The translations under genes were made by a program, and so were the position numbers. 64,000 bases of DNA from an uncultured Chloroflexia bacterium (GTDB lineage Bacteria > Chloroflexota > Anaerolineae > Anaerolineales > Villigracilaceae), in assembly GCA_963806575.1 (NCBI GenBank), contig CAWDYX010000020.1, positions 14,816 to 78,815 of the forward strand, in the 5' to 3' direction. Positions 314 through 42,366 of the stretch are shown piece after piece. The notes below the pieces were generated by a model that saw only the letters and a program-made list of their open reading frames with translations, did not search any database and was not told where the DNA came from. The first letter of the stretch is position 1. Every line of letters starts with the position of its first letter.

Positions 314-331
314 CCACCGCCCGAATTCCGG

Positions 332-363
332 CCATCGCAGACAATCTGCGGTGGCTGTTTTTT
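332..363 (+). terminator. intrinsic terminator
   Basis: Stem CCATCGCAGA / TCTGCGGTGG (one G-U pair) with loop CAA, followed by CTGTTTTTT. Confidence 0.7.
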
Positions 364-394
364 AGAATGTTGGGAATTCCATCGACGGAAAACC

Positions 395-1598: not shown

Positions 1599-1679
1599 GC
1601 CCGGTTCCTCTAAACATAAAAACTGGCGGAATTTCCAACAAATCCGCCAGTTTCTTTTCGCGAAATGTCAACTTGTCTG

Positions 1680-2084
1680 CTATTTGTTTAAATCAAGGAC
1701 ATATGCGATCACGTCCGCAATATTTTGCGGCTTCAAAGTGCCTTCATCTCCGAAGGCTGGCATTTTGCTGGCGGTTTTTGCTCCTGAAGGAGTGGAACCA
1801 TGTTCAATTACCAGACCCATAGCGGCCACATCCTTGAAATCCATGTCGATGGGTTTCAATTCCGGGACGGTCCCATCATCCGAACCAGGGTTGACAACTC
1901 CGCCTGTCCCGGCCAGGCCATGGCAGGACTTGCAGTACCCATCATAAATCACTTTTCCTGCCACAGGATCACCGGTCAGATTAACCTCTCTGCCCGGCTT
2001 TGTGACATCCTTAGCACAGGCAGTCAGGACCAGAATGACCAGACCAACGACAAGAGCAATTAATACGAACCATTTTCTATGCAT
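1680..2084 (-). CDS. membrane-anchored or lipoprotein monohaem c-type cytochrome
   Basis: N-terminal hydrophobic anchor with LTAC, haem-binding CKSCH (CxxCH), and a distal Met in SKMPAFG. Confidence 0.8.
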   Translation of the reverse strand: MHRKWFVLIALVVGLVILVLTACAKDVTKPGREVNLTGDPVAGKVIYDGYCKSCHGLAGTGGVVNPGSDDGTVPELKPIDMDFKDVAAMGLVIEHGSTPSGAKTASKMPAFGDEGTLKPQNIADVIAYVLDLNK

Positions 2085-2116
2085 ACATTCCTCCCGGGTA
2101 ATAGATTAGCAGCATT

Positions 2117-3416: not shown

Positions 3417-3505
3417 GATTATATAGCAAAGCCAGGCAACAAGGATGCCTCGCCCTGTAAACCCATCATAGAGTAATATTTCACAAGATGTATTGACTTG
3501 CAGGA

Positions 3506-4417
3506 TCAGATATCGTGCGGATCCAGCAATTCACTTAATCCATCTCCAAGTATATTCCAACCGATCCCAAACAGGATCAGAACAAGCGTGGCAGGGATAT
3601 AGACCCACCAATATGTAAATATACCTCCCCCCGGCCCGAGCACCCAGTCTTTACCCATTACCAACATTCTCCCCCATGTGGAGGAGCTATCCAAGTTGAT
3701 GAACGTGAATGTGGCTTGCAGGATGACCAAGGCGCCCACATCACGTGCAGCCAAAACAATGGATGGGGTGATCGAGTTGGGAAGCAGGTGGCGCAGGATT
3801 ATCCGGATGGGTTTTGCTCCGATGGCGCGGGCAGCCAGGATGAATTCGGATTGCTTGATGGAGATGACAACAGAATTGATGATGCGGGCATGCGGCATCC
3901 AGGAAAATAAAATAAGAATCAACATGAGCGGATTAATCGCCTGGATCAAAACCAGTATGAACGAAGAAGATTTCACCGGCAGTAACGACCAAACGTTATG
4001 GTAGGTATCAAACCACGCCCCCGCAGCAACAATCACCGAAACCCATAATTGATTAAGCAGCACGACACCTGCAATAATCGGAAACGCTGTGAAGCCATCT
4101 GTGATTCGCATGAGGATATTGTTGATAGCACCCCCCGCATACCCCGCAGTAGCTCCCAATAGAGCGCCTATGATGGCAGACAGGAGGGAAATTTCCAGAC
4201 CAAAAACAAGGGCATCACGCGTACCCCAAACCAAGGCATGAAAAACATCCCTTTGTCCCGGCAGGCTGCCCAAAGGAGATGCGATGCTTGGAGGATGGGG
4301 CCGTTGATCCCCTACAAGGGAACCCTTTACTTGCATAAAAGGTCCGGGGTCTTTCGAATTGTTTGGAGAAATCCAAGGCGCGGTAATGGCGATGACAATA
4401 AACAAGCCGACAAGCAA
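3506..4417 (-). CDS. ABC transporter permease, DppC/OppC-like
   Basis: Six TM helices and the EAA loop SEFILAARAIGAKPIRIILRHLLPN. The open frame with family-like sequence (RWQNWIGI) continues upstream to 4510 without an ATG, GTG or TTG, so the start is unresolved. Confidence 0.85.
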   Translation of the reverse strand: MLVGLFIVIAITAPWISPNNSKDPGPFMQVKGSLVGDQRPHPPSIASPLGSLPGQRDVFHALVWGTRDALVFGLEISLLSAIIGALLGATAGYAGGAINNILMRITDGFTAFPIIAGVVLLNQLWVSVIVAAGAWFDTYHNVWSLLPVKSSSFILVLIQAINPLMLILILFSWMPHARIINSVVISIKQSEFILAARAIGAKPIRIILRHLLPNSITPSIVLAARDVGALVILQATFTFINLDSSSTWGRMLVMGKDWVLGPGGGIFTYWWVYIPATLVLILFGIGWNILGDGLSELLDPHDI

Positions 4418-4548
4418 AATACCGATCCAATTCTGCCAGCGGGAGGAAAATCGTGTTAAGCTTCTGGACCAACGGAATCCGAAAATTGGCTCGGGTAAAT
4501 GATGACCTCTTAATGGAGCAGAGCGGGTAACTGTCTGTGCAGGTACCT

Positions 4549-4947
4549 TCAGTACCTGAGGTTGGGTTTTTGGTCAGATGCCGCAAGTTTCCACGAAACA
4601 TCCTGAGCGGTCCTGCCGAACTTCGAAATTACCGCCACGTTCCGACGAGATAGAGTTTGCTTTCTAGAGGATTGTCCCGCCTGTACTCGCCTCAGGCGCT
4701 CCACCGCCCAATGCATCCCCTTCCGGGCTCTCAGGCTGTGGGGGTTAATCTTCAGTGCCTGTTCCAGATATTTTGTACTGGCACGCGGGCTGGCAACCGC
4801 AGCCAGGAAAAGCCAAGGTTCTTCAGAATCCGGATCCAAAGTGACAGCCTGCATTGCCCAGCCACGCGCAGCCAGGTGGTCACCTCGTTGCATGGCTTGC
4901 CGGGCGTTTAGAAGGGCTCCACGGACAAATTCTGAATCGGCCTTCAT
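4549..4947 (-). CDS. small TPR-like protein
   Basis: Helical-repeat sequence ARQAMQRGDHLAARGWAMQAVTLDPDSEEPWLFLAAV...YLEQALKINPHS. Its ATG overlaps the stop of the upstream small ORF (ATGA). Confidence 0.5.
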   Translation of the reverse strand: MKADSEFVRGALLNARQAMQRGDHLAARGWAMQAVTLDPDSEEPWLFLAAVASPRASTKYLEQALKINPHSLRARKGMHWAVERLRRVQAGQSSRKQTLSRRNVAVISKFGRTAQDVSWKLAASDQKPNLRY

Positions 4948-5129
4948 GGATCAGGTAATGCTTTGACGTTCTCGTTATTGACAAAGAACAAAATTCCAGA
5001 CTTCACGGAACGTGACATTATATCTGGAAGTCGAACAAGAATCTCACGGTGAATGTCTCGGAAACCAGTATCTATGATGACTACGGTTCTAGCAGAGTTA
5101 TTGGCTTTGATGGCAGGTAAATTCGTCAT
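4944..5129 (-). CDS. hypothetical 61-aa protein
   Basis: ATG at 5129 lies 1 nt after the DppB-like stop, and its stop overlaps the TPR ORF start. Support comes only from this tight packing. Confidence 0.3.
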   Translation of the reverse strand: MTNLPAIKANNSARTVVIIDTGFRDIHREILVRLPDIMSRSVKSGILFFVNNENVKALPDP

Positions 5130-5130
5130 A

Positions 5131-6195
5131 TTATTGGATGATTTCCTGGCGCACACGCGGGTCAAAAATCACCAGCACAATATCCACGATGAACATCAAT
5201 GCCATTACCAGAAGAACACTATAAACGGAAAATCCCAGTGCAGCCGCGGGATCGGGAATACCCAACATGGACTTAAGAATCAGATCGGAGATACCCAGAT
5301 AGGAATAAATAATCTCCACCACGAAAACCCCGGTTACAAGCGAAGCCGCGGAAAGTGCCATACTGGTAAAGGTGGGAGTCAACGTGTTCCGAAAAGCATG
5401 TTTCCACATGATCATGCTCTCTTTTGCGCCGCGTGCCCTAGATGCGATAATGTATTCCTTCTTCCTTTCTAAAATGACAGCGGAACGGATGATCCGACCA
5501 AGCGTAGCCCAATGAAAAAGACTCAACGTGATGACCGGCATGACCAAATGACGAACTGCATCAACAGTAACATCCAGGCGATGATTAAGTAGCCCATCGA
5601 TCGTATACATACCAGTATAGGAAATAAATCCCTTGGCTTTCAGAGTCATCTCAAGACCCATGTTCAACCGGAACGGTGCAAACCAGTGAAGGGCTACATA
5701 GAAGACTGCGATCAAAATGATGGAGAGGATGAAGGGTGGAAAAGCCGTAGATACGAATGCTGCCAACCGGAAGGCGTTGTCAAACCCTTTGCGCTGGTTC
5801 CAACCTGCAACCACACCGCTCACCAAACCCAAGGGAATAAATAACAGGAACGAATAAAGAGCCAATTCTGCCGTTGCGGGTGTTCTGCGAAGTAATGCTG
5901 GCAGGACGTCCTCATGCAGAACTGGACTATAACCCCAAGTTCCCTGCAAAAGAGACCTCGTCCAGGTCAAATATTGGATGAAGTAATTATCATCCAGATG
6001 AAATTTCTTTATATTGACCTGGATAGCATGTGCCATCTGCTCCTCTGTCACGTGTGCGCTCGGATGATAATAAAGCAAGGCTCGCGTGGTCGGAGGCGTC
6101 ATCATAACACCTGCATACAGCAACATGGTGATTATAATAAGTGAAATGATGATGGCAATCAGGCGGCGGGTGAGAAATTGTACGAATGGTGGCAT
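5131..6195 (-). CDS. ABC transporter permease, DppB/OppB-like
   Basis: N-terminal FLTRRLIAIIISLIII and EAA loop EYIIASRARGAKESMIMWKHAFRNTLTP. Confidence 0.85.
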   Translation of the reverse strand: MPPFVQFLTRRLIAIIISLIIITMLLYAGVMMTPPTTRALLYYHPSAHVTEEQMAHAIQVNIKKFHLDDNYFIQYLTWTRSLLQGTWGYSPVLHEDVLPALLRRTPATAELALYSFLLFIPLGLVSGVVAGWNQRKGFDNAFRLAAFVSTAFPPFILSIILIAVFYVALHWFAPFRLNMGLEMTLKAKGFISYTGMYTIDGLLNHRLDVTVDAVRHLVMPVITLSLFHWATLGRIIRSAVILERKKEYIIASRARGAKESMIMWKHAFRNTLTPTFTSMALSAASLVTGVFVVEIIYSYLGISDLILKSMLGIPDPAAALGFSVYSVLLVMALMFIVDIVLVIFDPRVRQEIIQ

Positions 6196-6290
6196 GAAGT
6201 CAACTCATCGAAGTTATATTTTACTCCATGGATGAAATAATTCCATTTTCACTATCATCCCTCACTATGTAGATATGCTATACTCTTATT

Positions 6291-7030
6291 ATGCAGTACA
6301 AATATGCTACGGAACGCGCCAATTATGCAGACCTGGCCAGCGGGCACGTTTTCTACAGCCTGCCGGGGCATCCGGCGCTCCCGGTGCGCCTGGCAAGTGA
6401 GATCTACCAGCGCTGTCTGGCACTGCGGGGGCAGGGAATCTCTCCATGTACAATCTACGATCCATGCTGCGGGGCTGCCTATCATCTCAGTGTGATCGCT
6501 TACCTGCACTGGGAGTCGATCTACCGGGTGATCTGCTCGGATATTGACGAAAAGGCCGTCAGACTGGCGGAACGAAACCTGGGTCTGCTGACGCCGGGTG
6601 GAATAAAGAGAAGGAGCCGGGAAATTTCGGCGATGGTGCACCTGTACGATAAAGATCCCACAAAGGAGCGCTGGAGAGCATCACCCGCATGCAGGAACAG
6701 GTCAACCGGCTGACGGCGGTACGCCCGATCCAGACGCACGTCTTCCGCGCCAATGCCCTTAAGGCTTCCAGCCTGCGGGCAGGTCTGCAGGGTGTTGCGA
6801 TTGACCTGGTTTTTTCCGACATCCCTTATGGCCAGCACTCCCAATGGAAGGAAAACCAGACACCCCATCCAGCCTGGGCAATGCTGGAAGCATTGTTCGA
6901 GTTCCTTTCTCCTAAGAGTATTGTGGCAATAGTATCCGATAAACTTCAGAAGGCCGCTCACGAAAAGTATGAACAGATTGAAAAATTTCAACTCGGCAAG
7001 CGCCAGGTGATCATCCTGAGGCCTGCCTGA
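6291..7030 (+). CDS. SAM-dependent methyltransferase (DPPY-type catalytic motif); frame broken once
   Basis: ORF 6291..6713 has motif I (IYDPCCGAAY). ORF 6689..7030 has motif IV-like DLVFSDIPYG. The second frame is open from 6653, so the frames can be joined within 6653-6713. Confidence 0.55.
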
Positions 7031-7073
7031 AATAAATTGCCATAAATCTGCTTCCCGGCCTGACATAATCAGG

Positions 7074-7197
7074 TATAATCTGAGCCAATGAAACTGAACC
7101 CGCTCCCGGCCCCTGCCACACGAAACCCATCCAGGTCTGGTTAGGTTCAGTTCGGCATGCACACCGGCGGCTCCCAGACTTGGAGAGCCGTTTTTTT
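7074..7197 (+). promoter_or_regulatory. candidate promoter plus structured leader or short RNA ending in a terminator
   Basis: TATAAT at 7074-7079. Long-range stem GAAACTGAACC (7090-7100) pairs with GGTTCAGTTC (7144-7153). Terminator at 7169-7197. The next gene starts at 7238. Confidence 0.4.
7169..7197 (+). terminator. intrinsic terminator
   Basis: GGCTCCCA / TGGAGAGCC stem with one bulge, loop GACT, then G plus T7. Confidence 0.7.
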
Positions 7198-7237
7198 ATT
7201 GGATTGCAGATTGACGATTTGGGATTGGTGAGTAAAA

Positions 7238-7558
7238 ATGGACATACGAGACTTAACCACCAAAATGCACGCCTTTGTCCGCTCGAAGGGTTGGTACGAG
7301 CCGGGCAGTAAACGTCCGCAGACGCCGCGCAACCTGGCAATCTCGCTCTCGCTGGAAGCCAATGAAGTACTGGAGCACTTCCAGTGGCGGGACAACTTGA
7401 AAGACAAGGATGAACTCGCCAGCGAATTGGCCGACGTGACGTTATATCTATTACAATTGGCCTCGGTCTCTGGAATTGACCTGGAGCAGGCAGTTTTGAA
7501 GAAGCTCGAAACAAACGCGCAGCGCGAATGGGATGATGTTACTTCAAACGACAGGTGA
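7238..7558 (+). CDS. MazG-like nucleotide pyrophosphohydrolase
   Basis: Single MazG-type helical domain: RNLAISLSLEANEVLEHFQW...ELADVTLYLLQLA. Confidence 0.75.
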   Translation: MDIRDLTTKMHAFVRSKGWYEPGSKRPQTPRNLAISLSLEANEVLEHFQWRDNLKDKDELASELADVTLYLLQLASVSGIDLEQAVLKKLETNAQREWDDVTSNDR

Positions 7559-7582
7559 CCTTTTACTGATAGGAATTCATCC

Positions 7583-8179
7583 ATGAATGTGACAGTATTC
7601 GGTGGCTCGCATCCCAAAGAAGGCGAGGCAGCCTACTTGGAAGCCTATGAACTTGGCAAACTGCTGGCATTGGCTGGGCACACCGTCCTGACCGGCGCGT
7701 ATATTGGCACGATGGAGGCCGTCTCCAGGGGCGCGAATGAAGCTGGTGGACACGTCGTCGGAGTGACCAGTGTGGACATCGAAGCCTGGCGCAAAGTCAA
7801 GGCCAACCCCTGGGTGCAGGAGGAGCGGCGTTTCAACACCCTGCAGGAGCGGCTGAATGAACTTGTCCTGGCCTGTGATGCGGCCATTGCCCTGCCGGGC
7901 GGCCCCGGCACGTTGACCGAAATTGCCCTGACCTGGAACCTGATGATCGTTGCCTCCATCCCACCCAAACCACTCATTTTAACAGGGACGGGTTGGAAGA
8001 ACGTGATGGAATCGTTTTACAGTTCATTCGAAGCTCATATCCCGCAGAACCAGCGCAGCCTGCTGCAGTTTGCACTGGATGTACAATCCGCAGTCATGCT
8101 CTTAAAAAATTCAACCACCCAGGACGCAAATGCTCATGAAGGCTCACAAAGGAAACCTGTAAACCTTCGTGCTCCTTAG
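7583..8179 (+). CDS. LOG / TIGR00730-type Rossmann-fold nucleotide-binding protein
   Basis: VTVFGGS...GAYIGTMEAVSRGA...ALPGGPGTLTE motifs. Confidence 0.75.
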   Translation: MNVTVFGGSHPKEGEAAYLEAYELGKLLALAGHTVLTGAYIGTMEAVSRGANEAGGHVVGVTSVDIEAWRKVKANPWVQEERRFNTLQERLNELVLACDAAIALPGGPGTLTEIALTWNLMIVASIPPKPLILTGTGWKNVMESFYSSFEAHIPQNQRSLLQFALDVQSAVMLLKNSTTQDANAHEGSQRKPVNLRAP

Positions 8180-8226
8180 TGTTCCTCGCGGGAAACAATT
8201 TATTATTCCAAATTACCGAGGTTCTC

Positions 8227-9666
8227 ATGCCAGACGAAAAACTTACCCCCCGCAATGTTGACTTCTCCGAATGGTACAACCAGATCGTCCAGCGCGCCGA
8301 GATGGCCGACTACGCCCCGGTGCGCGGCTGCATGGTGGTGCGACCATACGGTTGGGCGCTTTGGGAGAACATCCAGGCAGCCCTTGACCAGCGCTTCAAA
8401 GAGACTGGTCATGTCAATGCCGCCTTCCCGCTCTTCATCCCGATGTCATTCCTAGAAAAGGAGAAGGATCACGTGGAGGGATTCTCGCCTGAACTGGCGG
8501 TTGTGACCATCGGCGGCGGCGAGAAACTCGAAGAGCCGCTGGTGGTGCGCCCCACCTCGGAAACCATCATCGGTTACATGTACGCCAAGTGGATCAAGAG
8601 CTACCGCGACCTGCCGGTACTGATCAACCAGTGGGGCAACGTAGTGCGCTGGGAATTGCGCACGCGCCTGTTCCTGCGCACGCTGGAGTTCTACTGGCAG
8701 GAAGGTCACACCGCCCACGCCAGCGAACAAGAAGCACGTGAGGAAACCATGCGCATGCTGGGCGTGTATGCCGATTTCGCAATCACTGAAGGGGCTGTGC
8801 CGGTCATCCAGGGCGTCAAGTCCCAGACCGAGAAGTTTGCCGGTGCAAGTATGTCCACCACCATTGAGGCCATGATGCAGGATATGCGCGCCCTGCAATC
8901 CGGCACCTCACACTTCCTCGGCCAGAATTTTGCCAAAGCCTTCAACATCCAATTCCTGGATGAGAGCAACACACTCCAATATGCCTGGACGACCTCCTGG
9001 GGTTTGTCAACCCGCTTCATCGGCGCGCTCATCATGACACACGGTGATGATCAGGGGCTGATCCTGCCGCCGCGCCTGGCCCCCATCCAGGCCGTCATCG
9101 TGCCAATCTTCAAATCGGATTCGGAAATAACTGCGGTCATAGAGGCAGTCAAACGGGTCCAGACTGAACTCAAGGCCGCCGGTATCCGCGTCAAGGTGGA
9201 CGAGCGAAGGGAAGTCACACCCGGCTTCAAATTCAACGATTGGGAAATGCGCGGAGTGCCGCTGCGGATCGAGATCGGTCCCAGGGATGTGGAGAAAGGC
9301 AGCGTCGCCCTGGCCCGGCGCGATCGCCCAGGGCGAGAAGGCAAGTCATTTGTCCCGCAGGCTGGCTTGTCTGCGACAGTCACCGACCTGCTGAATGACA
9401 TCCAGAGATCCTTGCTGGAGCGGGCGACGATCTTCCGCGACAGTCACATTTTCCACCCGAAGGATTACGCCGAATTGACCAAAGTCGTCGAGAACGGCTG
9501 GGCTTATTCGTACTGGTGTGAGTCCGCCGATTGCGAAGCGAAGGTGAAGGAGGATACCAAGGCCACCACCCGCTGCATTCCTCTCAACCAGGAAGAAGGC
9601 CCAGGCAAGTGCATCGTGTGCGGGAAGGATGCCAAACGAAAGGTGTACTTCTCAAGGGCATACTAG
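8227..9666 (+). CDS. proS: prolyl-tRNA synthetase, archaeal/eukaryote-like type (no INS editing domain)
   Basis: N-terminus MPDEKLTPRNVDFSEWYNQIVQRAEMADY..., class II motifs, and a Cys-rich C-terminal domain ending in FSRAY. I moved the start to ATG 8227 from the ORF-track start 8179. Confidence 0.9.
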   Translation: MPDEKLTPRNVDFSEWYNQIVQRAEMADYAPVRGCMVVRPYGWALWENIQAALDQRFKETGHVNAAFPLFIPMSFLEKEKDHVEGFSPELAVVTIGGGEKLEEPLVVRPTSETIIGYMYAKWIKSYRDLPVLINQWGNVVRWELRTRLFLRTLEFYWQEGHTAHASEQEAREETMRMLGVYADFAITEGAVPVIQGVKSQTEKFAGASMSTTIEAMMQDMRALQSGTSHFLGQNFAKAFNIQFLDESNTLQYAWTTSWGLSTRFIGALIMTHGDDQGLILPPRLAPIQAVIVPIFKSDSEITAVIEAVKRVQTELKAAGIRVKVDERREVTPGFKFNDWEMRGVPLRIEIGPRDVEKGSVALARRDRPGREGKSFVPQAGLSATVTDLLNDIQRSLLERATIFRDSHIFHPKDYAELTKVVENGWAYSYWCESADCEAKVKEDTKATTRCIPLNQEEGPGKCIVCGKDAKRKVYFSRAY

Positions 9667-9699
9667 GGTGTCAAGTGTCACGAAAAGATAGGAGGAATG

Positions 9700-10090
9700 A
9701 TGGCGCTGATAAAACGGTCTGGGCAATGGCAATATCCTTGCCTGGCAGGAAGCAAGGAAACTGGTAAAGGATATCTACCTTTTCAGCAGAGACGGAAACT
9801 TCTAACCAAAGACATTTCGGATTGCGTGACCAGGAATTCAACGGGCAGCAGTTTCTGTGATGGCAAATATTTCCGAAGGTTTCGATTGCGATTCTCATAT
9901 CGAGTTATTGCACTTTGCTTCCTAGGTATTGCACGCTGATCGGCGGTAGAAGTGCAGTCGCAACATCGTCGCGGTGGTGAAGATACTGGCTAAATCACCG
10001 AGGAGAGTTTCGGAGTTGGATGAAATCCTTGGCTGAAAAAGATCAAAGCTCCCTTATAGGATGTATGGCGATCTCAAAAAAACCCTCAAA
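9700..10090 (+). pseudogene. decayed four-helix-bundle protein gene (23S rRNA intervening-sequence protein family)
   Basis: Family blocks are recognisable: NILAWQEARKLVKDIY, QRAAVSVMANISEGF, FLGIAR-SAVEVQSQ and SELDEILG. They are interrupted by at least five in-frame stops and at least one frame change. The boundaries are approximate. Confidence 0.6.
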
Positions 10091-10146
10091 CCTCGCACGT
10101 GACAACAGGAACACGTGTCACTGTTTCACGTATTCAGGCGGTAAAT

Positions 10147-11971
10147 ATGAAAATCAGCCAACTCTTCGGTCAAACCCTCACGCGAAACACCGGCGGAAGC
10201 GGAAGTCGAAAGTCACAAATTGCTCGTGCGCGCCGGTTTTATCCGACCCCTTGGGGCGGGCATCTTCACTTACCTTCACCTGGCAAATCGTTCGATGCAG
10301 AAAATCGAGGCCATCCTGCGCGACGAGATGGACAGGATCGGCGGGCAGGAGATCAGCATGCCGATTGTCCAGCCGGCGGACCTGTGGAAGGAAACCGGGC
10401 GCTGGTACCAGATCGGCTCCGAGATGGGCAGGTTCAGTGACAGGAACGCCCATGACATGGTCCTGGCCATGACGCACGAGGAGGTGGTGGCCGACCTGGT
10501 GCGCCGGGAAGTGCAGTCCTACAAGCACCTGCCGCGCCTGATCTATCACATCCAGACCAAGTTCCGCGACGAGCCGCGTCCACGTGCCGGGTTGATCCGG
10601 GTGCGTGAATTCACCATGAAGGACAGCTACAGCCTGGATGGCGACTGGGAGGGCCTGGACAAACAATATCGCCTGCATTACCAGGCCTATTTCAACATCT
10701 ACCACCGCTGCGGCTTGGATGTGATCGCGGTCAAGTCGGATACCGGCATGATGGGCGGCAAACTGGCCCACGAATACATGTATCTCAGTCCCATCGGAGA
10801 AGACACGCTCATCCTGTGCGACAAGTGTGGTTACAGCGCCAATCGGCAGGTGGCGCGCTTCCAGAAAGCGCCCGCCGCCCCTGAAGAGTTAAAACCGGTC
10901 GAGAGAGTCCATACTCCTGCCTGCAAATCCATTGAGGAATTGGCGAACTTCCTGGGGGTGCCAAAATCCAAGACTGCCAAGGCGGTGTTCTTTATGGCAG
11001 GAATTTCAAAAAACCCAAAGACATCAGAAGTAAAAGAGGAACCAAAGCAGCAATTTATCTTTGCGGTCATACGCGGAGACATGGAATTGAATGAGACCAA
11101 ACTTGCCAACGCCGTCGGCGCAAGCGAGCTGCGACCGGCTACGGAAGAGGAAATTAAAGCGATCGGCGCAGTGCCCGGGTTCGCTTCACCAGTTGCCCTC
11201 ACCTCCCGCTCCTCTCCCGGTGGGAGGGAGGTTGATGTGAGGGTGGTGCTGGATGACAGCATCCCCGCTTCCCCCAATCTGGTGGCGGGAGCCAACGAGA
11301 CTGACTATCATCTGCTCAACACCAATTTTCCACGCGACTACCAGGCTGACATCGTTGCTGACATTGCCGCGGCCGAGCAGGGTCACGCCTGCCCGGAGTG
11401 TGGAAATCCATTGAGAACGGCGCGCGGCGTGGAAGTGGGCAATATCTTCAAACTCGGCACGCGTTACTCAGACGCTCTCGGTTGTACATTTCTTGACAGG
11501 GACGAGCAGCCAAAACCGGTCATCATGGGTTCCTACGGCATCGGAGTGGGCCGCCTGTTGGCCTGCGTGGCCGAGGAGCACCACGACGAAAACGGCCTGA
11601 TCTGGCCGGTAACGGTGGCCCCGTACCAGGTGCACCTGGTGCTTTTACGTGGAAAGAACACGCCACAGGCTGAAGAGACTGCCAACAAACTCTATGTGGA
11701 GCTGCAAGCCGGGGGTGTGGAAGTGCTTTACGACGACCGGGACGAAAGCCCGGGTGTCAAATTTAACGATTCCGACCTGATCGGACTACCGGTCCGGCTG
11801 ACGGTCAGCGAACGCGCTCTGGCCCAAGGTGGAGTGGAAATGAAACTGCGCAGCGTAACGGAAAAGGTCATCATCCCGCTGGCTGAAACGGCAGTCCGGA
11901 TCCGGGCCGAACTCACCGCCCTGGAAAACGGGATCGCCGCCAGGGTCACTTCGGTGCAGTACAATGGCTAA
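10147..11971 (+). CDS. proS: prolyl-tRNA synthetase, bacterial type with INS editing domain; frame broken at codon 12
   Basis: ATG 10147 gives MKISQLFGQTL. The main ORF (track 10220..11971) is open from 10151 and reads RETPAEAEVESHKLLVRAGFIR... Skipping the single A at 10180 gives a canonical bacterial ProRS N-terminus. Confidence 0.9.
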
Positions 11972-28798: not shown

Positions 28799-30907
28799 TT
28801 ATGGATTGCCAGTCAATCCATTGGCAATGTCAACCGCCTTGAGCTGAAAATAAGCGCTCATGACATCCCTCACAGTTGGCGCAACCACTCTACCGCCCTC
28901 ACCGGCATTGTACATGAAGGCCAAAATAACTATTTCCGGGTTGTCATAGGGGGCATATGCAACCGTCCAGCCATGGGCCGGCCAGTTTCCACGCGTGCAT
29001 TGGTTTTTTGCCATGGCAACATCATCACAGAATTCAGCCGTACCGGTTTTGCCGGCGATTGCGATGGGGTAATTCAGGAACGAAAAATCATGGTTGAGCG
29101 TACCGGCTGGATCGGTCGCGGCCAGGCGCAATCCCGCCTGAAGATTCTGGACCGCCTCTGTTGAAACGGTCTTCATCAGGCCTGTCGCTGTGCACTCCCC
29201 ATTTACACAATTGAAATCCTTGATGATCGGGTCTGTCGTGATGTCCCAGCGCAAACGCGGATTAAAAGGCTGGACGATATTCCCTGCGCTATCCACAATG
29301 TCGTGGATGATGGTCGGTTGCATCTGACGACCATTATTGGCAATCGTGGCGGCTGACATAAGCACCTGCAAGGGGGTTGCCACCACATAGCCCTGGCCTA
29401 CACTGGCGAGGTAAGTATCACCAGTTGACCAGTTTTCGCCCTGGTAGATCCGTTTCCAGGTTGGGTCAGGGATAAGGCCGGAGGCTTCTGCTGGAAGCTC
29501 GATGCCGGAAGGCTGGTTGTATCCCAAAGCCTGTGCATATTGCTGAAGACGCAGGATGCCCAACCCCTGGTCAACCTCACCAGGGTAGCCACCACCCACT
29601 TTATAAAAGCACACATCGCTGGAGCGGGCAATACACTCCAGGAAAGGTATCTTCCCAAGGCCGGCAGTCTGGCCGTAAAAAGTGTAGGTCCAGTCGTAAT
29701 AATATTCCATGGTGCCAGGGTCGGTGGGAGAGAACGTATCCTTCAGACCAATCATGGCTGGAGCATCGATGACCGTTTTGGGAGTAACAACACCCTCGTT
29801 CAAAGCACCCAAGGCGGTTGAAAGTTTGAAAGTGGAACCAGGCGCATATTCTGTTGAAATGGCATAATTGAGCAGGGGGTGTGCGGGGTCTTTCGCCAAC
29901 TGGTTGTAGTAGTATGAAGGGATGATTCGCGCCATCCGGTTATTCTCATACGTCGGATACTGCACCATCGCCAGGATCTCACCTGTCTTGGGATTCATGG
30001 CAATGACAACGCCGCTGGAAATACGATAATAGTGGTTGTAAACATCGTTCCAGTAATCGATGTCGCGTTTCAGGATCGATGCGGCTGCCTGTTGAAGTCG
30101 GGTATCGATCGTCAGAACGACATTATCCCCGGGGATCGGATCGACCGGTGGCTGCAAGTTGCGCAATTCCTGCCCGGCCACATCCACTTCCACGGTGCGT
30201 TGGCCCGGTTTCCCAATCAGGGTATCATTCAATGTTAATTCCACGCCGGCGTACCCAACCTTATCGCGATTGGGCAGAAAATTCTGGGCGCGGTATACCT
30301 TCTCCAGCGCTGCCGGGATGGGGCCTAAAAAGCCGACAATGTTCGCAGTCAACGATCCGGTCGGATAATCACGAACCGGTTGAATATCCACGCCCACGCC
30401 CGGCCAGTCCATTGCATGCTCCCGTACCATCATGGCTATTTTTTCTTCGACATTGCACTGGATTTTTACCGGCAAATATGGGGCATTGGAGAAACCCAAT
30501 TCAACGAACTGCAGGATGCCTGGACCAGGGATACAGGGGGCAAGCAATTTGGCATCCTCGACGGTTCCATGACTGACTGGAATGCCCGTCAAAGCGGAAA
30601 GGTCGCGGTAAATTCGTTGGACATCGCCATCATCATCCGGCAGGTAGGCGGGCGTGATGATGATGTTATACGAAGCAATGTTTCGCGCCAGGATAATCCC
30701 GTTCCGGTCATAGATGATCCCGCGTGACGGAGCAACGCTGATAATGTTCGTACGATTGCTGTCTGTTTCAAGGCTGTATTTTTTTCCATCCAGAATTTGC
30801 AGCTTGAACAAACGGCCTGCAAAGATGACTGCCACCGTACCAAGCAAAACATACACGATCAGGAATCGCCAGGTCTGGAAATGCACCGAACGCGGAGAAG
30901 TTGTCAT
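28799..30907 (-). CDS. mrdA: penicillin-binding protein 2 (elongasome transpeptidase)
   Basis: N-terminal TM helix, STFK active-site motif (PGSTFKLST) and KTGT (AGKTGTAEF). Located next to mreBCD. Confidence 0.9.
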   Translation of the reverse strand: MTTSPRSVHFQTWRFLIVYVLLGTVAVIFAGRLFKLQILDGKKYSLETDSNRTNIISVAPSRGIIYDRNGIILARNIASYNIIITPAYLPDDDGDVQRIYRDLSALTGIPVSHGTVEDAKLLAPCIPGPGILQFVELGFSNAPYLPVKIQCNVEEKIAMMVREHAMDWPGVGVDIQPVRDYPTGSLTANIVGFLGPIPAALEKVYRAQNFLPNRDKVGYAGVELTLNDTLIGKPGQRTVEVDVAGQELRNLQPPVDPIPGDNVVLTIDTRLQQAAASILKRDIDYWNDVYNHYYRISSGVVIAMNPKTGEILAMVQYPTYENNRMARIIPSYYYNQLAKDPAHPLLNYAISTEYAPGSTFKLSTALGALNEGVVTPKTVIDAPAMIGLKDTFSPTDPGTMEYYYDWTYTFYGQTAGLGKIPFLECIARSSDVCFYKVGGGYPGEVDQGLGILRLQQYAQALGYNQPSGIELPAEASGLIPDPTWKRIYQGENWSTGDTYLASVGQGYVVATPLQVLMSAATIANNGRQMQPTIIHDIVDSAGNIVQPFNPRLRWDITTDPIIKDFNCVNGECTATGLMKTVSTEAVQNLQAGLRLAATDPAGTLNHDFSFLNYPIAIAGKTGTAEFCDDVAMAKNQCTRGNWPAHGWTVAYAPYDNPEIVILAFMYNAGEGGRVVAPTVRDVMSAYFQLKAVDIANGLTGNP

Positions 30908-31410
30908 ACTGTTTCCTTCTCCGGATAGAGCCGGTTTGCCAGATCACGAATAAGAGCGTGAACGGGTATGGCGAGCAGCAGGTTCAGCAGAATGGTCGGC
31001 AGGAATATTTGAAGAAAAACTTCACTCAGGGAGAGTGGAACTTCAAAAAGTGTGCGGCGGAGGAACATGAGCATAAGCAACTCCAGCGTACCAATAAGTG
31101 TGACGGCAAACATCACCAGAAGCGGTGCCTGCCAGATGCGATGCGCCATTAAGCGTGCGACGCCGACCGCGGATAAATATCCGATAAGATAAATATACCA
31201 TGGGACACCCGAAACCAGCCCAACCAGCAGCCCGGCCGCAACTCCCCAGATCCAGGCGCCGCTGGCACGCTCGTGCAACCCCCAGGCCACCACCACAAGC
31301 AATACCAAATCGGCGTTACCGCTGAGCAGCATGATCCGGCTGGCTATGGATGTCTGGAGGATGACCGTCAATACCAAAACAGGAATTCCCGTCAGGATGG
31401 CGCGACGCAT
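30904..31410 (-). CDS. mreD: rod shape-determining protein MreD
   Basis: 168-aa polytopic protein between mreC and PBP2. Confidence 0.8.
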   Translation of the reverse strand: MRRAILTGIPVLVLTVILQTSIASRIMLLSGNADLVLLVVVAWGLHERASGAWIWGVAAGLLVGLVSGVPWYIYLIGYLSAVGVARLMAHRIWQAPLLVMFAVTLIGTLELLMLMFLRRTLFEVPLSLSEVFLQIFLPTILLNLLLAIPVHALIRDLANRLYPEKETV

Positions 31411-31411
31411 T

Positions 31412-32263
31412 TTACGGACCTGGTGTCCCGATCAGGGGCGTAATATCCACCGGCTTGAAGTTGGAAATGACAAGGATAAACTGCAGCTGGTTGTAATCCA
31501 CATTCGGCTGGATGGAAGCCTGCTGGAACAATTCGGATTGCAGTTTTCGGACGCTGACCACCTGTCCCACCAGCAAATTGGGCGGGTAGTTGCCACCCAA
31601 ACCGGAGGTCAGCACTACATCCCCAACCTGGACATTTGCATCTTGAGGAATCATATCCAGAGACAGATCGCCGGTAATCGAACCAACCAGCATTGCCTCG
31701 GTGTTGGAGGCCTGCATTCGGACGTTGATGGCCGAGGCAGCATCGGTCACCAGCTGGACGCGGGCTGCCTCCGCAATGACGGCATCCACACGTCCGACCA
31801 GGCCTTTATCGGTAACTACCGGCATCCCTGGCAAAATGCCCTCATTCGAGCCGATATTAATGATGACATAACGGAGGAATGGGCTTGGGTCCCGCCCGAT
31901 AACGGCGGCAGCCTTATAGGAATATTCGGGATTTGCGCGGGCAAAGTCCACCAGGGCGGAAAGGATGTTCGTCTCGGTAACCTGTTGTTGGAGGTCGATC
32001 ACCTGCGTTTGGAGTCGGGCCACATCCCCCTCCAATTGTGCATTGCGGTTCCGCAGGGAGGCCACATCCCGCGGCACTGTCAGAAAATCCACCAGTGTCA
32101 GATAACGGCCGGAAATCCAGGTCTGAGCGTTTACCGTTATGCGTGTGAACCAGTTGGTGACCGGATTGAAATAGCCGCCCAGGGCCAATGCCACCAGGCC
32201 AATTGCCACCAGGACGATCACAACTGTTTGCAGGGAACGTGGAAAACTGGATTTCATAGGCAA
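31412..32263 (-). CDS. mreC: rod shape-determining protein MreC
   Basis: N-terminal TM helix, a coiled-coil segment (LRNRNAQLEGDVARLQTQVIDLQQQ) and a beta-rich C-terminus (VVTDKGLVGRV...). Confidence 0.85.
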   Translation of the reverse strand: MPMKSSFPRSLQTVVIVLVAIGLVALALGGYFNPVTNWFTRITVNAQTWISGRYLTLVDFLTVPRDVASLRNRNAQLEGDVARLQTQVIDLQQQVTETNILSALVDFARANPEYSYKAAAVIGRDPSPFLRYVIINIGSNEGILPGMPVVTDKGLVGRVDAVIAEAARVQLVTDAASAINVRMQASNTEAMLVGSITGDLSLDMIPQDANVQVGDVVLTSGLGGNYPPNLLVGQVVSVRKLQSELFQQASIQPNVDYNQLQFILVISNFKPVDITPLIGTPGP

Positions 32264-32299
32264 CAGGCAAAACCGCGCCAGCGAGACGCGGCCACGCGG

Positions 32300-33367
32300 T
32301 TAGGAATGCCGCGTACTGCCGCGCTCGAGGCCAACTAAATAACGGCGGTAAGTGGAAAAATCGTCCAATACCATGCCGGTACCGCGCACCACGCAGGTCA
32401 GCGGATCTTCAGCGACCCAGGCGTGTAAATTCAATTCATCCGAGAGACGGTCGGCCAACCCCTGCAGCAACGACCCACCCCCTGCCAGGCAAATACCATT
32501 GTCCATCAGGTCGGCCACAATTTCGGGTGGGACTTCATCCAGGGCGTCTTTGATCGTGTCAACGATCACCCCGACTGATTGTGAAAGCGCCTCACGCACC
32601 TCAATGGAAGAAATCTCAATGGATTCAGGCAGGCCCGTTACCAGGTTACGTCCGCGCACCTCTACCGTCTTCTCGACCGGAAGAGGAAAAGCCGAACCAA
32701 TTTCCCATTTTACTTGCTCGGCAATACGTTCACCGATAAGCACATTATATTTATTTCGGACGTATTGGACGATATCCTGATCCATTTCATCGCCCGCCAC
32801 GCGCAGAGACCTGGAAATGACCACGCCACCCATGGACAAGACCGCCACTTCGGTCGTCCCTCCGCCGATATCCACGACCATCGAGCCGCGTATTTCGGAT
32901 ACTGGCAGACCGGCCCCCAGTGCCGCGGAAGTCGGTTCCTCGATAAGATAGGCCTCGCGTGCACCAGCGGACATGCATGCATCGTAAACAGCGCGCTTCT
33001 CAACCTCGGTCACACCGGATGGAATGCCAATTACCACACGCGGGCGCGGCAGTGGCACTACACTTTGCTCGTGTACTTTTCCGATGAAATATTCCAACAT
33101 GGCCTCTGTTATTTCAAATTCTGAGATGACACCATCTCGCACTGGACGCACCACGATAATGTTGCCTGAAGTCCGCCCGACCATTTCCTTGGCATCCAGA
33201 CCAATGGCCATTGGCTGGCGGGAACGCTTGTCTATGGCTACCCATGAAGGTTCATTTATTACGATACCCTTTCCCCGGACATGGACAAGTGTATTTGCAG
33301 TACCCAAATCGATACCAATATCCAGGGAAAAAAGGCCCAGAAGCCAATTGAGTGGGTTAAAAGCCAA
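32300..33367 (-). CDS. mreB: rod shape-determining actin homologue MreB
   Basis: IGIDLGTANTLV, EPSWVAI, VVDIGGGTTEVAV and LAGGGSLLQG motifs. Confidence 0.95.
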   Translation of the reverse strand: MAFNPLNWLLGLFSLDIGIDLGTANTLVHVRGKGIVINEPSWVAIDKRSRQPMAIGLDAKEMVGRTSGNIIVVRPVRDGVISEFEITEAMLEYFIGKVHEQSVVPLPRPRVVIGIPSGVTEVEKRAVYDACMSAGAREAYLIEEPTSAALGAGLPVSEIRGSMVVDIGGGTTEVAVLSMGGVVISRSLRVAGDEMDQDIVQYVRNKYNVLIGERIAEQVKWEIGSAFPLPVEKTVEVRGRNLVTGLPESIEISSIEVREALSQSVGVIVDTIKDALDEVPPEIVADLMDNGICLAGGGSLLQGLADRLSDELNLHAWVAEDPLTCVVRGTGMVLDDFSTYRRYLVGLERGSTRHS

Positions 33368-39086: not shown

Positions 39087-39177
39087 TGACATCCCCCGAT
39101 ACATCGGGAATCCTCACCGCCGTCCGGGTGGGTCCGGCGCGGCGGAACCCTGCGGATCCCGTCAGGTCCGAAAGGAA
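39087..39177 (+). repeat. truncated duplicate of the SRP RNA promoter and 5' half (left direct repeat)
   Basis: 91 nt align with 42224-42314 with 3 mismatches. The -35 and -10 elements are degraded (CTGACA / AATCCT), and the copy stops inside the conserved GGTCCGAAAGGAA apex. Confidence 0.85.
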
Positions 39178-39299
39178 ACATTTCTTTGTCTGAAATAGCT
39201 GACTTCTTGTCAAAAAAAAGAACCGGTTTCCTGGGAATTGCTGGATATATGAGAAAATGGGCGGTCAATAATCGGCTGCCCATGACAACAAACTTGCTC

Positions 39300-40253
39300 T
39301 TATTTTACCTGCACCAGCACTGCTCTTACGATTATGCGGTATTTGTAGGAATTGCTGGTTTCATCATAACCACGGCAGGTAACCAGCGTGACCCAGGATA
39401 GGTCTTCGTGCTTGAGCAAGGTTGCCGTAGCGTCCGGCGAGACCTGTAGCACACTCCGGACTTCGTAGACGTATTGTACGCCCCAGGCATGGACGATGAT
39501 TTCATCCCCATACCATAACCCATTCAAGTGCACGAATGGTCCCGGTCGGCCGTAGGCATCATAAACATGACCGGTCAGTACCGAGTTCCCGGAATGGGTC
39601 GGGAAAGCCGACCCATTCAGCCATCCGGCATCATTCCCCAGCCAGGATACATCCCATGTCCCATCCTCGGATTGAGGTACACCCACGATCGGCAACTCCA
39701 CACCCATCCGCGGGATCTCCAGCCAAAGGGTACCCAGGTTGGCATAGCGAATGGATGGCTGGGTCAGAAAAGTCACCCTGTTTGGGGCAAAACCAGTGCT
39801 CGGGAGGCTGACAGCCTTTGGCTTAGACCAGGTGGCACTGGCAGAGCCCACGTTTTGTTCGCCAGGATCGGTGGTGTTGCCATTCCCATTCAGATCAGAA
39901 TCAATGGTAGCCTTATTGGTTGCTGAGGTCACACCAGAGTTTAGGGAGGTTTTGAATTGAATAATAAGCTCATTCTTCGCAGCGGCTACATTCTTCGCTC
40001 CAAAATCAGGAGCGATCGATCCGGTCCACACCACCCGTCCACGAGGGTAGGTCAGGCTCGGTTTTTCGTACAGGCAGCTCGTGGTTGTTGTGAGAGTAGA
40101 CGCACCCATGCAGCTCAGACTTCCTTCCACATAGGTCGTGCCTGCCGGGATAGAATCATGGACCGCAGCATTCACCGCCACATGATTTAACCCATTGATC
40201 CAATACATTGTCCAGACCAGGTTCGGCAACCCGGATGAATCCACTACTTTCAC
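39300..40253 (-). CDS. DUF11-like beta domain, LPSTG motif and sortase catalytic domain (C-terminal part of a longer gene)
   Basis: Sortase His (LTGHVYD), Cys (VTLVTCRG) and Arg (YRIIVRAV). LPSTGF lies immediately N-terminal to the sortase fold. The frame stays open upstream to 40697 as Thr/Pro repeats with no canonical start, and is the same frame as ORF 40698..41891. Confidence 0.8.
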
Positions 40254-40289
40254 GCCGAACGGCGGGTTGTAAAGGTGCCAGCGGGGGGT

Positions 40290-41297
40290 AATTGTCGGCG
40301 TTTGAGTGGCGGTCGAAGAGGGGGTAAAGGTCGGTCTGGGCGTCGGGGTGTAGGTTGGGGTAAGGGTGATGGTCGCGGAGGGCGTTAGGGTCAGCGAGGC
40401 CGTCGGGGTGTAGGTTGGAGTATCTGTGTCGGTCGGGGTTAACGTCGGGGTATCTGTCGGCGTATTCGTCGGCGTGGAGGTCGGAGTTGCGGTATTGGTC
40501 GGCGTGAAGGTCGGAGTATTAGTGTCCGTCGGGGTATAGGTCGGCGTGTGTATCTGTAGGCGTGTAGGTTGGAGTATCCGTGTCTGTCGGCGTGTAGGTT
40601 GGAGTATCCGTGTCTGTCGGGGTGTAGGTTGGAGTATCCGTATGCGTCGGGGTGTAGGTTGGGGTATGAGGGTAATGGTCGCGTGAGGGCGTTAGGGTCA
40701 GCGAGTGTCCGTCGGGGTGTAGGTCGGAGTATTTGTGTCGGTCGGGGTTAACGTCGGGGTATCTGTCGGCGTATTCGTCGGCGTGGAGGTCGGAGTTGCG
40801 GTATTGGTCGGCGTGAAGGTCGGAGTATTAGTGTCCGTCGGGGTGTAGGTCGGTGTATCCGTATCCGTCGGGGTGTAGGTTGGAGTATTGGTGTCGGTCG
40901 GGGTTAACGTCGGGGTATCTGTCGGCGTATTCGTCGGCGTGGAGGTCGGAGTTGCGGTATTGGTCGGCGTGAAGGTTGGAGTATCCGTGCCTGTCGGCGT
41001 GTAGGTTGGTGTATCCGTATCCGTCGGCGTATAGGTCGGAGTATTGGTGTCGGTCGGGGTTAACGTCGGGGTATCTGTCGGCGTATTCGTCGGCGTGGAG
41101 GTCGGAGTTGCGGTATTGGTCGGCGTGAAGGTCGGAGTATTAGTGTCCGTCGGGGTGTAGGTGGTGTACGTTGGCGTGAAGGTCGGAGTATCCGTGTCCG
41201 TTGGAGTGTGGGTCGGTGTATCCGTCGGCGTAAAGGTCGGAGTATCTGTGTGCGTCGGGGTATAGGTCGGGGTTTCCGTGTTCGTCGGAGTTGCAGT
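40290..41297 (-). repeat. tandem 156-bp (52-codon) coding repeats encoding a (T-P-T-x) linker
   Basis: The block GTCGGGGTTAACGTCGGGGTATCTGTCGGCGTATTCGTCGGCGTGGAGG recurs at 40431, 40741, 40897 and 41053. The last three are spaced 156 nt apart. 30-nt sub-repeats lie at 40560-40650. Confidence 0.9.
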
Positions 41298-41891
41298 GGG
41301 TAAAGTCGTGTCTTGCACCCACAGCCAGTATTCATGACAATCGCGAATGGAATGTCCGTAAAGGGGTCCCCATTGGGTCTCCTCAACATAATACCAGCCA
41401 TCGGCAGGGGCAGTCCATGTAATCAAACTATCCCGGTAGAAGTAATACCCCATGTACCAGGTAGTCCACCCCACATCATCATCGAAAGCTAACTGCGTAA
41501 CGCCATCCGGGGCATAGAGGTAGAGGTATGTGTCATTGGCGGCAACATCACCTGAATTGATGTCATTTATCAGCTGAGTCCTGATCTCATAATCATCGCC
41601 ACTGAATGCATAAAACGTTACCCAGTCCTGCTCGCTTGGAGGATTCGTGTTTATATGAAATTGGCGTGTACCATCGGTGGGGACAATACTAGCTTGCAGG
41701 TAGGTGTTATCAGGTTCGTAACTATCATTTTCACATAAAGGAGGTGGTTGGTCTCTCGACGCCGCCAAGACAGGCCGGGTCTGGGCAGCAAAGGTAAGCA
41801 CCAGGATCAACGCCACAATTCGCCCCATAAGCAAAAATAGTTTGCCTGGTTGATCTTTAGGCTTCTTTATATGCATGTCTCTTTCCACCAA
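40698..41891 (-). CDS. secreted protein: signal peptide, PPC (pre-peptidase C-terminal)-like domain and long Thr/Pro repeat linker (N-terminal part of the longer gene)
   Basis: Signal/anchor [23 protein letters not shown]-like block [11 protein letters not shown]...[17 protein letters not shown]...[14 protein letters not shown] repeats then run to TGA at 40698-40700. Confidence 0.8.
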
Positions 41892-42222: not shown

Positions 42223-42251
42223 TTGACATCCCCCGATACATCGGGTATCCT
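42223..42251 (+). promoter_or_regulatory. sigma-70-type promoter of the SRP RNA gene
   Basis: TTGACA (42223-42228), a 17-nt spacer and TATCCT (42246-42251). Confidence 0.7.
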
Positions 42252-42257
42252 CACCGC

Positions 42258-42366
42258 CGTCCGGGTGGGTCCGGCGCGGCGGAGCCCTGCGAATCCCGTC
42301 AGGTCCGAAAGGAAGCAGCGGTAAGAAGGTGTCTCCGGGTGCCGCCGGGTCTCCTGCCCGGACATT
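42258..42366 (+). ncRNA. ffs: signal recognition particle RNA (small, 4.5S type)
   Basis: Conserved domain IV GTCAGGTCCGAAAGGAAGCAGC with a GAAA tetraloop. The 5' GTCCGGG pairs with the 3' CCCGGAC. The ends are approximate. Confidence 0.85.

Follow-up and report, generated by a model that had tools for sequence, protein, structure and literature searches.

Within a 64,000-nucleotide stretch of DNA from an uncultured Chloroflexia bacterium (GenBank assembly GCA_963806575.1, contig CAWDYX010000020.1, positions 14,816 to 78,815 of the forward strand; hereafter the window, whose own numbering is used throughout), a minus-strand gene running from 41891 to 39300 carries an LPSTG sorting motif that is followed, on the same chain, by a sortase domain. 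Comparison with relatives shows that this motif–sortase fusion is real and strongly conserved in a large family of secreted Anaerolineae surface proteins, and suggests that each of them cuts and anchors itself. An earlier reading made from the letters alone (the sequence-only reading) had drawn attention to the placement of substrate and enzyme in cis, and this architecture turns out to be the defining feature of a very large family. Specifically, we propose that Sec-exported surface proteins of the Anaerolineae end in a cis-acting, single-use sortase module that cleaves LPxTG between its Thr and Gly and transfers the passenger, probably to the cell wall; on the strength of sequence comparison and structure prediction, we put the probability of this reading at about one half. 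The same earlier reading described the window gene as encoding one long secreted protein, and here it does not hold: as written, the frame is broken by a TGA at 40700-40698 and a TAA at 40694-40692, a disruption that lies well upstream of the module and is treated separately below.

The motif, its tether and the sortase domain

The module lies in an open reading frame (ORF) of 317 amino acids (aa), in which residues are numbered here:

39792..39806, minus strand: LPSTG pentapeptide, residues L150 to G154, with the predicted scissile bond between T153 and G154
39729..39791, minus strand: tether between the motif and sortase strand 1, 21 residues, conserved and length-constrained, with a predicted local distance difference test (pLDDT) score of about 40-57
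39303..39728, minus strand: sortase catalytic domain (PF04203), with the stop codon at 39300-39302
39567..39569, 39375..39377 and 39336..39338, minus strand: His229, Cys293 and Arg306

The 21 residues between LPSTG and the sortase domain contain neither a stop nor a start codon, in agreement with the sequence-only reading, and its observation that no hydrophobic helix or basic tail follows the motif is equally borne out, the protein ending at the last sortase strand (...RAVLVQVK). Its claim of a complete sortase fold is likewise upheld. The domain matches PF04203 (Sortase) with E 2.3e-23 and 82.7 bits against a cutoff of 26.6, and TIGR01076 with 43.6 bits against a cutoff of 39.35, which places it above the thresholds of both sortase superfamily profiles. 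The top 50 Foldseek matches in the PDB are all sortases (E 2e-9 to 1e-7, target template modelling scores mostly 0.5-0.7); SrtE1 (5cuw) and SrtC (2xwg) rank first, with E about 1e-9. By profile, catalytic triad and fold, the domain is a member of the sortase superfamily.

The catalytic residues are H229 (in LTGHVY), C293 (in TLVTC) and R306 (in YKYRIIV); none of the three varies across 81 aligned relatives, and all match catalytic residues of class C sortases in alignment. The His and Cys had been assigned correctly from the letters alone (LTGHVYD and TLVTC); the Arg had been placed in IVRAV, and this assignment has to be revised, given that R310 of IVRAV is less than 90% conserved in the same 81 relatives. 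R306 lies at Cys+13, the same spacing that separates C184 and R197 of Staphylococcus aureus SrtA. Across the same alignment P151, G154 and F155 of the motif region are invariant and T153 is at least 90% conserved, as are P157, T161 and Y170 of the tether. Additional invariant positions within the domain are W200, W204, L205 and H282 (G.WDVSWLG...AGWL.G.AFP, and KHE with H282), a pattern that we do not recognise from descriptions of sortase classes A-F; these residues might form an acceptor (nucleophile) site.

In AlphaFold2 models of both the 317-aa ORF and the 188-aa module, the motif and tether have pLDDT values of 40-57 and no secondary structure, and the domains on either side exceed 90. 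This bears on an alternative raised by the sequence-only reading, namely that the motif-like sequence is a structural part of this sortase class. We disfavour it on three grounds: the low pLDDT of the segment, the NCBIfam class F model, which aligns only from residue 177 on, 23 residues past the motif, and a distant relative whose sortase has no motif at all. A conserved, length-constrained and flexible segment that carries the exact recognition consensus of the enzyme beside it, whose triad is intact, is best explained as a linear motif engaging that enzyme.

Conservation of the module across relatives

Searching for homologues of the 317-aa piece gave 409 proteins, and in nearly all of the best 120 of these the pattern [L/I/V/M]PxTGFAPxxxTxL lies 141-145 residues before the catalytic Cys. 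To avoid circularity, a query limited to the sortase domain and free of the motif was compared with 1.84 billion representative proteins, giving 1272 clusters (50% identity) at E<=1e-30. Among the best 150 of the 1272 the sortase domain is always at the extreme C-terminus, in proteins of 120-3600 aa, and in 129 of 134 new representatives xPx[T/S]GF precedes the Cys by 140-150 residues. Of the remaining five, one is a fragment, one has the motif and was missed by the Cys pattern, two have LPxAGF and one has NPINTGF. In the kind of survey that the sequence-only reading had proposed, about 97% of the relatives, which number more than 250, have the motif at a constant distance, and the arrangement is not due to chance. 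The first motif position is L in 79 cases, I in 30, V in 8, M in 4 and A in 4, and x is free; with Pro, Thr and Gly invariant or nearly so, this conservation has the pattern of a sorting signal. Furthermore, 23-26 residues separate the motif Gly from strand 1 (xEIP) in 98% of the sequences measured (234 of 239). A fixed tether length is what would be expected if the motif must reach the active site of its own protein, and it is not needed for a substrate processed in trans.

When one genome per species was scanned, all 22 close loci came from metagenome-assembled genomes (MAGs) of Anaerolineae/Chloroflexota; the scan also gave one distant sortase relative from the Candidate Phyla Radiation (L023), which is the relative without a motif mentioned above. 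Members named in databases are Anaerolineales or Anaerolineaceae, and their records read 'sortase', 'class F sortase', 'Ig-like domain-containing protein' or 'LPXTG-site transpeptidase (sortase) family protein'. The statement in the sequence-only reading that such proteins are annotated simply as sortase in Chloroflexota is correct, judged by the source names, all of them from Anaerolineae.

What precedes the module is, by contrast with the module itself, highly variable. Intact full-length relatives have 557-1192 aa, and one has at least 3445; judged by sequence, they begin with AxA-type signal peptides. Their passengers include an S8 subtilase with prodomain (L011), a PD40 propeller, Chlamydia-PMP repeats, Big_5/Big_12, Ice_binding and DUF7507/DUF11. 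PF01345 (DUF11) and PF24346 have been renamed CLIPPER and CLIPPER_2; they represent isopeptide stalk domains of CnaA-like type that occur in fibrillar adhesins (PMC12617251). Taken by domain content, this range reads as the cargo spectrum of wall-anchored proteins. Several genomes have more than one member, each with its own sortase copy: L012 has a tandem pair, and a further two MAGs have two loci apiece. Given that the passengers are unrelated, as are the gene neighbourhoods (described below), the conserved unit is the C-terminal module, which is cargo-independent and behaves like a sorting tag.

No membrane anchor adjacent to the enzyme domain was seen in translations of the window protein or its relatives. 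In the six-frame ORFs of the window and 23 loci (351,511 residues), [LIVM]PxTGF occurs 25 times, of which 24 are directly before a sortase module, and none of the 2715 ORFs of this sampled DNA (about 370 kb) carries a canonical LPXTG with helix and basic tail. The lack of canonical signals in this sample is consistent with use of the motif in cis.

The tandem pair in L012 deserves a separate remark. The two paralogues (3135-5348 and 8264-10537) encode 738 and 758 aa and lie about 3 kb apart on a 4.89-Mb Anaerolineales contig, and their motif regions are nearly identical, SSLPKTGFAPNKITTLPAQPADSAY. This suggests a recent duplication of the whole passenger-plus-module gene.

Relationship to known sortases and sorting signals

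The nearest known sortases belong to classes F, C and E (profiles PF04203, NF033748, NF033745 and NF033747; structures 5cuw and 2xwg), with which the domain has in common an eight-stranded beta-barrel, the His-Cys-Arg triad, TLxTC, an Arg at Cys+13 and a motif of LPxTG type. Classification with profile models, a check that had been suggested along with the original observation, places the domain in the sortase superfamily and below the cutoff of each class-specific model. The models scored were NF033745, NF033746, NF033747, NF058671, TIGR03784 and NF033748; the best of them, class F (NF033748), gives 53.1 bits against a cutoff of 166, and the others give 49.7 (class C), 35.5 (class D), 34 (SrtD), 32.3 (class E) and 28.1 bits (GN) against cutoffs of 140-165. 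No class A or B model is among the models matched. As far as profiles can tell, the family lies outside every curated sortase class scored.

Comparing the architecture with that of known systems reveals further differences. Unlike a canonical membrane-anchored sortase, the catalytic domain here is C-terminal and follows 120-3400 passenger residues, and the N-terminal hydrophobic segment is followed by what is, by sequence, an AxA cleavage site. In contrast to known sortases, the domain is preceded at a distance of 23-26 residues, on its own chain, by the motif presumed to be its substrate, and it has the extra invariant WDVSWLG and H282. The canonical LPXTG wall sorting signal (Gram_pos_anchor) likewise has [L/I/V]PxTG at the C-terminal end of diverse passengers; the stalk domain and Thr/Pro linker ahead of the motif in the window protein recall wall-spanning proteins of Gram-positive bacteria. 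The pentapeptide is therefore shared, whereas the helix and charged tail are absent; in their place stand a conserved tether and a whole sortase domain, with the FAP...T.L that follows the Gly conserved as well.

It is also worth considering precedents of function. Engineered self-cleaving sortase fusion tags (BISOP) place enzyme and LPXTG on one chain, and cleavage frees the two halves (PMC2901362). These are man-made, have the reversed order sortase-LPXTG-target, and serve hydrolytic or Gly-driven release rather than anchoring (PMC2901362). Such fusion tags are nonetheless the nearest functional precedent, and only engineered fusions were found in the openly searchable full-text literature (subscription-only papers lie outside it), where we found neither a natural LPXTG-sortase fusion nor a function for this family. 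Among C-terminal autoprocessing modules, the Hint domain of Hedgehog proteins offers a looser parallel: a cargo-independent C-terminal domain that makes a (thio)ester, passes its cargo to an acceptor and is then discarded. Fold and chemistry of Hint are unrelated to those of the sortase module, and the likeness is by analogy only.

A proposed cis mechanism and its alternatives

The proposed mechanism can be set out as follows. The module would consist of the last approximately 170 residues: [L/I/V/M]PxTG, a flexible tether of 23-26 residues (FAPxxxTxL...Y..LG) and a catalytically complete sortase domain. Following Sec export the signal peptide would be removed, and the tether would allow the motif to enter the catalytic site of the sortase domain on the same chain. 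Cys293 would then attack the Thr153-Gly154 bond, holding the passenger as a thioacyl intermediate, and an amine acceptor, most likely a peptidoglycan stem peptide or lipid II, would resolve it. As a result the passenger would be covalently attached to the wall, and a sortase fragment of about 163 residues (starting GFAP...) would be discarded or would act on siblings. One copy of the enzyme per substrate would in this way replace the set of LPXTG, membrane helix, basic tail and separate membrane-anchored sortase. Recognition in cis, cleavage and the identity of the acceptor are the parts of this scheme that we infer. At somewhat under even odds, again from sequence and models, we would extend it to the view that the Anaerolineae have replaced the two-component system by a natural autosortase, a portable, single-turnover C-terminal module that joins any passenger to the cell wall or another amine acceptor and is used by hundreds to thousands of surface proteins.

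Several points weigh against the cis mechanism. A soluble acyl-enzyme with no membrane anchor is unusual for anchoring that depends on lipid II, and the new N-terminal Gly of the released enzyme could reverse the reaction. AlphaFold2 left the motif undocked from the active site in both runs, an outcome that by itself speaks neither for nor against docking in cis. Mutual information with average product correction between motif/tether and domain, calculated from only 250 related sequences, gave no convincing sign of coupling; the best z-score was 4.2 (R159-V268), and phylogeny confounds the values. The window's own copy is frameshifted, and the absence of canonical substrates and stand-alone sortases covers about 370 kb of sampled DNA, not whole genomes.

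These points leave room for other explanations of the same architecture. One is that the motif is a true substrate processed in trans, by the sortase of a neighbouring molecule or by a housekeeping sortase, for example to build head-to-tail (Thr-to-Lys) fibres or pili as class C enzymes do, in which case each subunit would bring its own polymerase. The passengers next to the motif are indeed often CnaA/CnaB-type stalks typical of pilins and fibrillar adhesins (PF01345/PF24346 CLIPPER, DUF7933), tandem paralogues and neighbouring adhesin-like genes exist, and the motif stays undocked in the AlphaFold2 models. It could also draw on the conserved Lys in FDPPFG[VI]K of the window protein's subfamily, but this Lys is located where CLIPPER domains put the Lys of their intramolecular isopeptide bond, and the domain before the motif varies so widely (subtilase, ice-binding-like, Big, TIG) that there is no common Lys acceptor. 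Processing in trans also gives the tight tether length no obvious role and is wasteful in spending one enzyme per substrate; we consider it unlikely. It is quite improbable, in our view, that LPxTGF stays uncleaved and is a pseudo-substrate, lid or regulatory tether at the active site of a sortase that acts on other substrates while tethered to a surface protein. The residues after the Gly (F155, P157, T161 and Y170) are as conserved as the pentapeptide, which is unusual for sorting signals and suggests a docking role, and stretches ahead of strand 1 are known to extend to the active site of other sortases (as in PDB 2KW8, one of the PDB matches). In the class C lid (DP(W/F/Y)) and the N-terminal appendage of Bacillus anthracis SrtA, a segment of the same chain ahead of strand 1 contacts the active site. 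Those segments, however, are not cleavable sorting motifs, whereas the one found here is a perfect LPxTG and is predicted to be flexible rather than packed. With an exact, canonical cleavable consensus next to an intact triad, protection from cleavage would need a special mechanism. Moreover, the sampled DNA contains no separate proteins with the motif or with canonical sorting signals on which such an enzyme could act, the enzyme has no membrane anchor, and its many paralogous copies have different passengers.

Finally, the module could be a self-removing C-terminal pro-domain that cuts itself off between the Thr and Gly of LPxTG, after which hydrolysis of the thioester would release a mature, soluble passenger, as a step of maturation or timed release with no anchoring. 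This accounts for the same evidence of architecture as the cis anchoring mechanism and in addition for the lack of an element of membrane retention, and some passengers are enzymes that could be free exoenzymes, such as the S8 subtilase with prodomain in L011. Nonetheless, sortases of classes A-D are poor hydrolases relative to transpeptidation, a transpeptidase of 140 residues is a costly means to a single cut, and the passengers include many domains of stalk or adhesin type, which have to be anchored; we hold this explanation to be very improbable.

If cleavage and transfer in cis prove true, they would amount to a new route of surface-protein sorting, in which every substrate brings a disposable enzyme of its own and a membrane anchor is dispensed with, and would explain how surfaces are built in a large, abundant and mostly uncultured group, the Anaerolineae of the Chloroflexota. 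Current surveys of adhesins and anchors seek LPxTG in the last 50 residues only, and the proteins of this family are therefore missed. One can also imagine a compact, genetically encoded tag for protein engineering that ligates or cleaves itself. Database names would have to be corrected as well, 'class F sortase' now being used for proteins that score 53 bits against a threshold of 166.

The passenger upstream of the motif

Ahead of the module, the window gene encodes the following parts:

41763..41876, minus strand: signal peptide of AxA type with a VLA-AS cleavage site and a likely ATG start at 41876, read from the translation
41304..41762, minus strand: N-terminal passenger domain, PPC-like (PPC, pre-peptidase C-terminal domain), 153 residues (PF04151 below threshold)
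40281..41303, minus strand: Thr/Pro-rich repeat linker of about 340 codons, with 30-nucleotide (nt) units and a 156-nt higher-order repeat (Tandem Repeats Finder)
39825..40280, minus strand: beta-sandwich stalk domain, CLIPPER/DUF11-like, starting NPPFGVK (AlphaFold2 all-beta, pLDDT >90)

This order follows that given by the sequence-only reading, with some of its labels in need of qualification. The N-terminal signal peptide stands; the purine-rich GGAAAGAG is just upstream of its likely start codon, and a 95%-identical fragment, P0255, begins at the same Met. The Thr/Pro repeats, put at about 330 aa, are present over approximately 340 residues. Tandem Repeats Finder gives a period of 156 with 3.0 copies and 93% matches at 40708-41168, and a period of 30 across 40402-41288.

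The term PPC-like is a fair label for the N-terminal domain, whose profile score stays below the PPC cutoff: PF04151 has no match when the full ORF is scanned, and scanning the N-terminal part alone gives 23.2 bits against a cutoff of 25.9 (E 1.3e-4), with nearly the full profile covered (positions 2-67 of 70). A distant homologue, P0258, does have a PF04151 match. With this part as query, four matches were obtained, all of them fragments or short contigs.

The label DUF11-like has a similar standing for the beta domain. Homologues with 55-65% identity to the window protein carry PF01345/PF24346 matches, whereas in the window protein itself the signal is weak (TIGR01451, DUF11, at 19.1 bits against a cutoff of 24), a Pfam scan gives the domain no match, and a sequence search against the PDB yields no relatives of it. 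Homologues of the domain keep FDPPFG[VI]K and VSDxIPxGTT, at positions that correspond to the sites of the isopeptide Lys and the catalytic Asp in CLIPPER/DUF11 domains (PMC12617251). By analogy, an intramolecular Lys-Asn isopeptide bond is possible in the window protein.

The disrupted frame of the window copy

The minus-strand frame from 41891 to 39300 comprises 864 codons and is divided into two ORFs, 40698..41891 (397 aa) and 39300..40253 (317 aa), by the two in-frame stops given at the outset, which appear on straight translation. The break has the following extent:

40548..40706, minus strand: frame disruption, with stops and a repeat that is legible in the offset-2 frame

After the stops the original frame yields about 50 codons of Arg/Pro/Gln-rich nonsense, and three-frame translation shows that the Thr/Pro repeat from about 40706 to 40548 is legible in the offset-2 frame only. 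This implies the loss of one nucleotide near 40705 and of two near 40553; from about 40547 on, the sequence is again legible in the original frame. The start of the disruption coincides exactly with the end of the 156-nt higher-order repeat. The first start codon of the downstream piece is a GTG at 40253, inside the folded beta domain, and neither a Shine-Dalgarno sequence nor a signal peptide was found for this piece. The source's own gene call at the locus, P0001, is truncated at 269 aa. With two compensating frameshifts in the Thr/Pro repeats, the window copy as written is unable to make the full-length protein, and is either a pseudogene or a mis-assembled repeat.

The neighbouring ORFs of 1214 and 702 aa are uninterrupted, so the frameshifts are not general indel noise, and general indel noise of the assembly was ruled out as their cause on this basis. 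Two explanations for the locus itself may be weighed. Either the gene is truly dead, split into a fragment with the PPC and Thr/Pro parts, which would be secreted, and a remnant with the sortase, which would not be expressed, or the frameshifts are assembly errors of the repeat region and the gene is intact in the organism. In support of a disrupted gene are the two stops, the stretch out of frame, the downstream part with no usable start or Shine-Dalgarno sequence and the truncated gene call; the break also begins exactly at the end of a repeat with 93% identity, and abutting broken ORFs occur in a relative from a long-read MAG (L024) as well. Set against a dead gene, the frame is regained after the two shifts of -1 and -2 nt, the 460 codons downstream, all invariant family residues included, are undamaged, which argues against long-standing decay, and the long ORFs nearby are intact. 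We would give a truly dead gene somewhat less than an even chance.

Broken reading frames were also seen in two relatives. In L024 (contig_78672 of the long-read MAG, 4604-11578), three abutting ORFs on the same strand, of 701, 1085 and 525 aa with gaps of 2-31 nt, carry DUF7933, CLIPPER, SdrD_B and Sortase, and the second ends in an Arg-rich tail that resembles the product of a frameshift. These are probably one giant family member broken by indel errors, and protein lengths in such assemblies are hence unreliable. In L022 (6653-7555), the sortase module ends at profile position 153 of 181, before the end of the catalytic Cys region, and is truncated or frameshifted.

Surroundings of the gene

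Two copies of a direct repeat bracket the gene:

39087..39180, plus strand: left copy of a 94-nt direct repeat, 96% identical to 42224-42317
42224..42317, plus strand: right copy of the repeat, overlapping a complete signal recognition particle (SRP) RNA gene at 42263..42362 (RF00169)

The SRP RNA gene matches Rfam RF00169 (Bacteria_small_SRP) with 63.6 bits (gathering score 40, E 6e-13). The window has only two copies of the 94-nt repeat, and shuffled sequences have none. The right copy takes in the initial 55 nt of the SRP RNA gene as well as 39 nt upstream of it, which makes the left copy a truncated duplicate of the gene's 5' portion and upstream region. The segment between the copies has no integrase. 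Insertion or duplication of these 3.1 kb at the SRP RNA gene is one possible origin of the arrangement; another is an assembly loop, of which the repeat would be the mark.

Beyond the repeats, the window neighbourhood holds genes for MreB, MreC and PBP2, a CpaF-type ATPase, STAS, phosphoglucomutase and TatD, and the neighbourhoods of the two relatives examined are made up of equally unrelated housekeeping genes. We considered whether the CpaF-type ATPase, STAS or PP2C genes nearby are linked in function to the sortase gene and rejected the idea, the neighbourhoods of the relatives being unrelated. Directly downstream, the minus-strand segment 33491-38912 encodes the 1214-aa protein, a STAS anti-sigma antagonist and a CpaF/TadA-type T2SSE ATPase. 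The 1214-aa protein has, by eye in translation, an anti-sigma-kinase-like N-terminus, GAF repeats and a PP2C/SpoIIE-type C-terminus. This segment looks like a partner-switching module beside a Tad-type ATPase and is apparently unrelated to the sortase gene. Further along the same strand, at 28799-33367, lies a cell-shape cluster of mreB, mreC, a 168-aa ORF that has no Pfam match and occupies the mreD position, and a gene for a PBP2-type transpeptidase.

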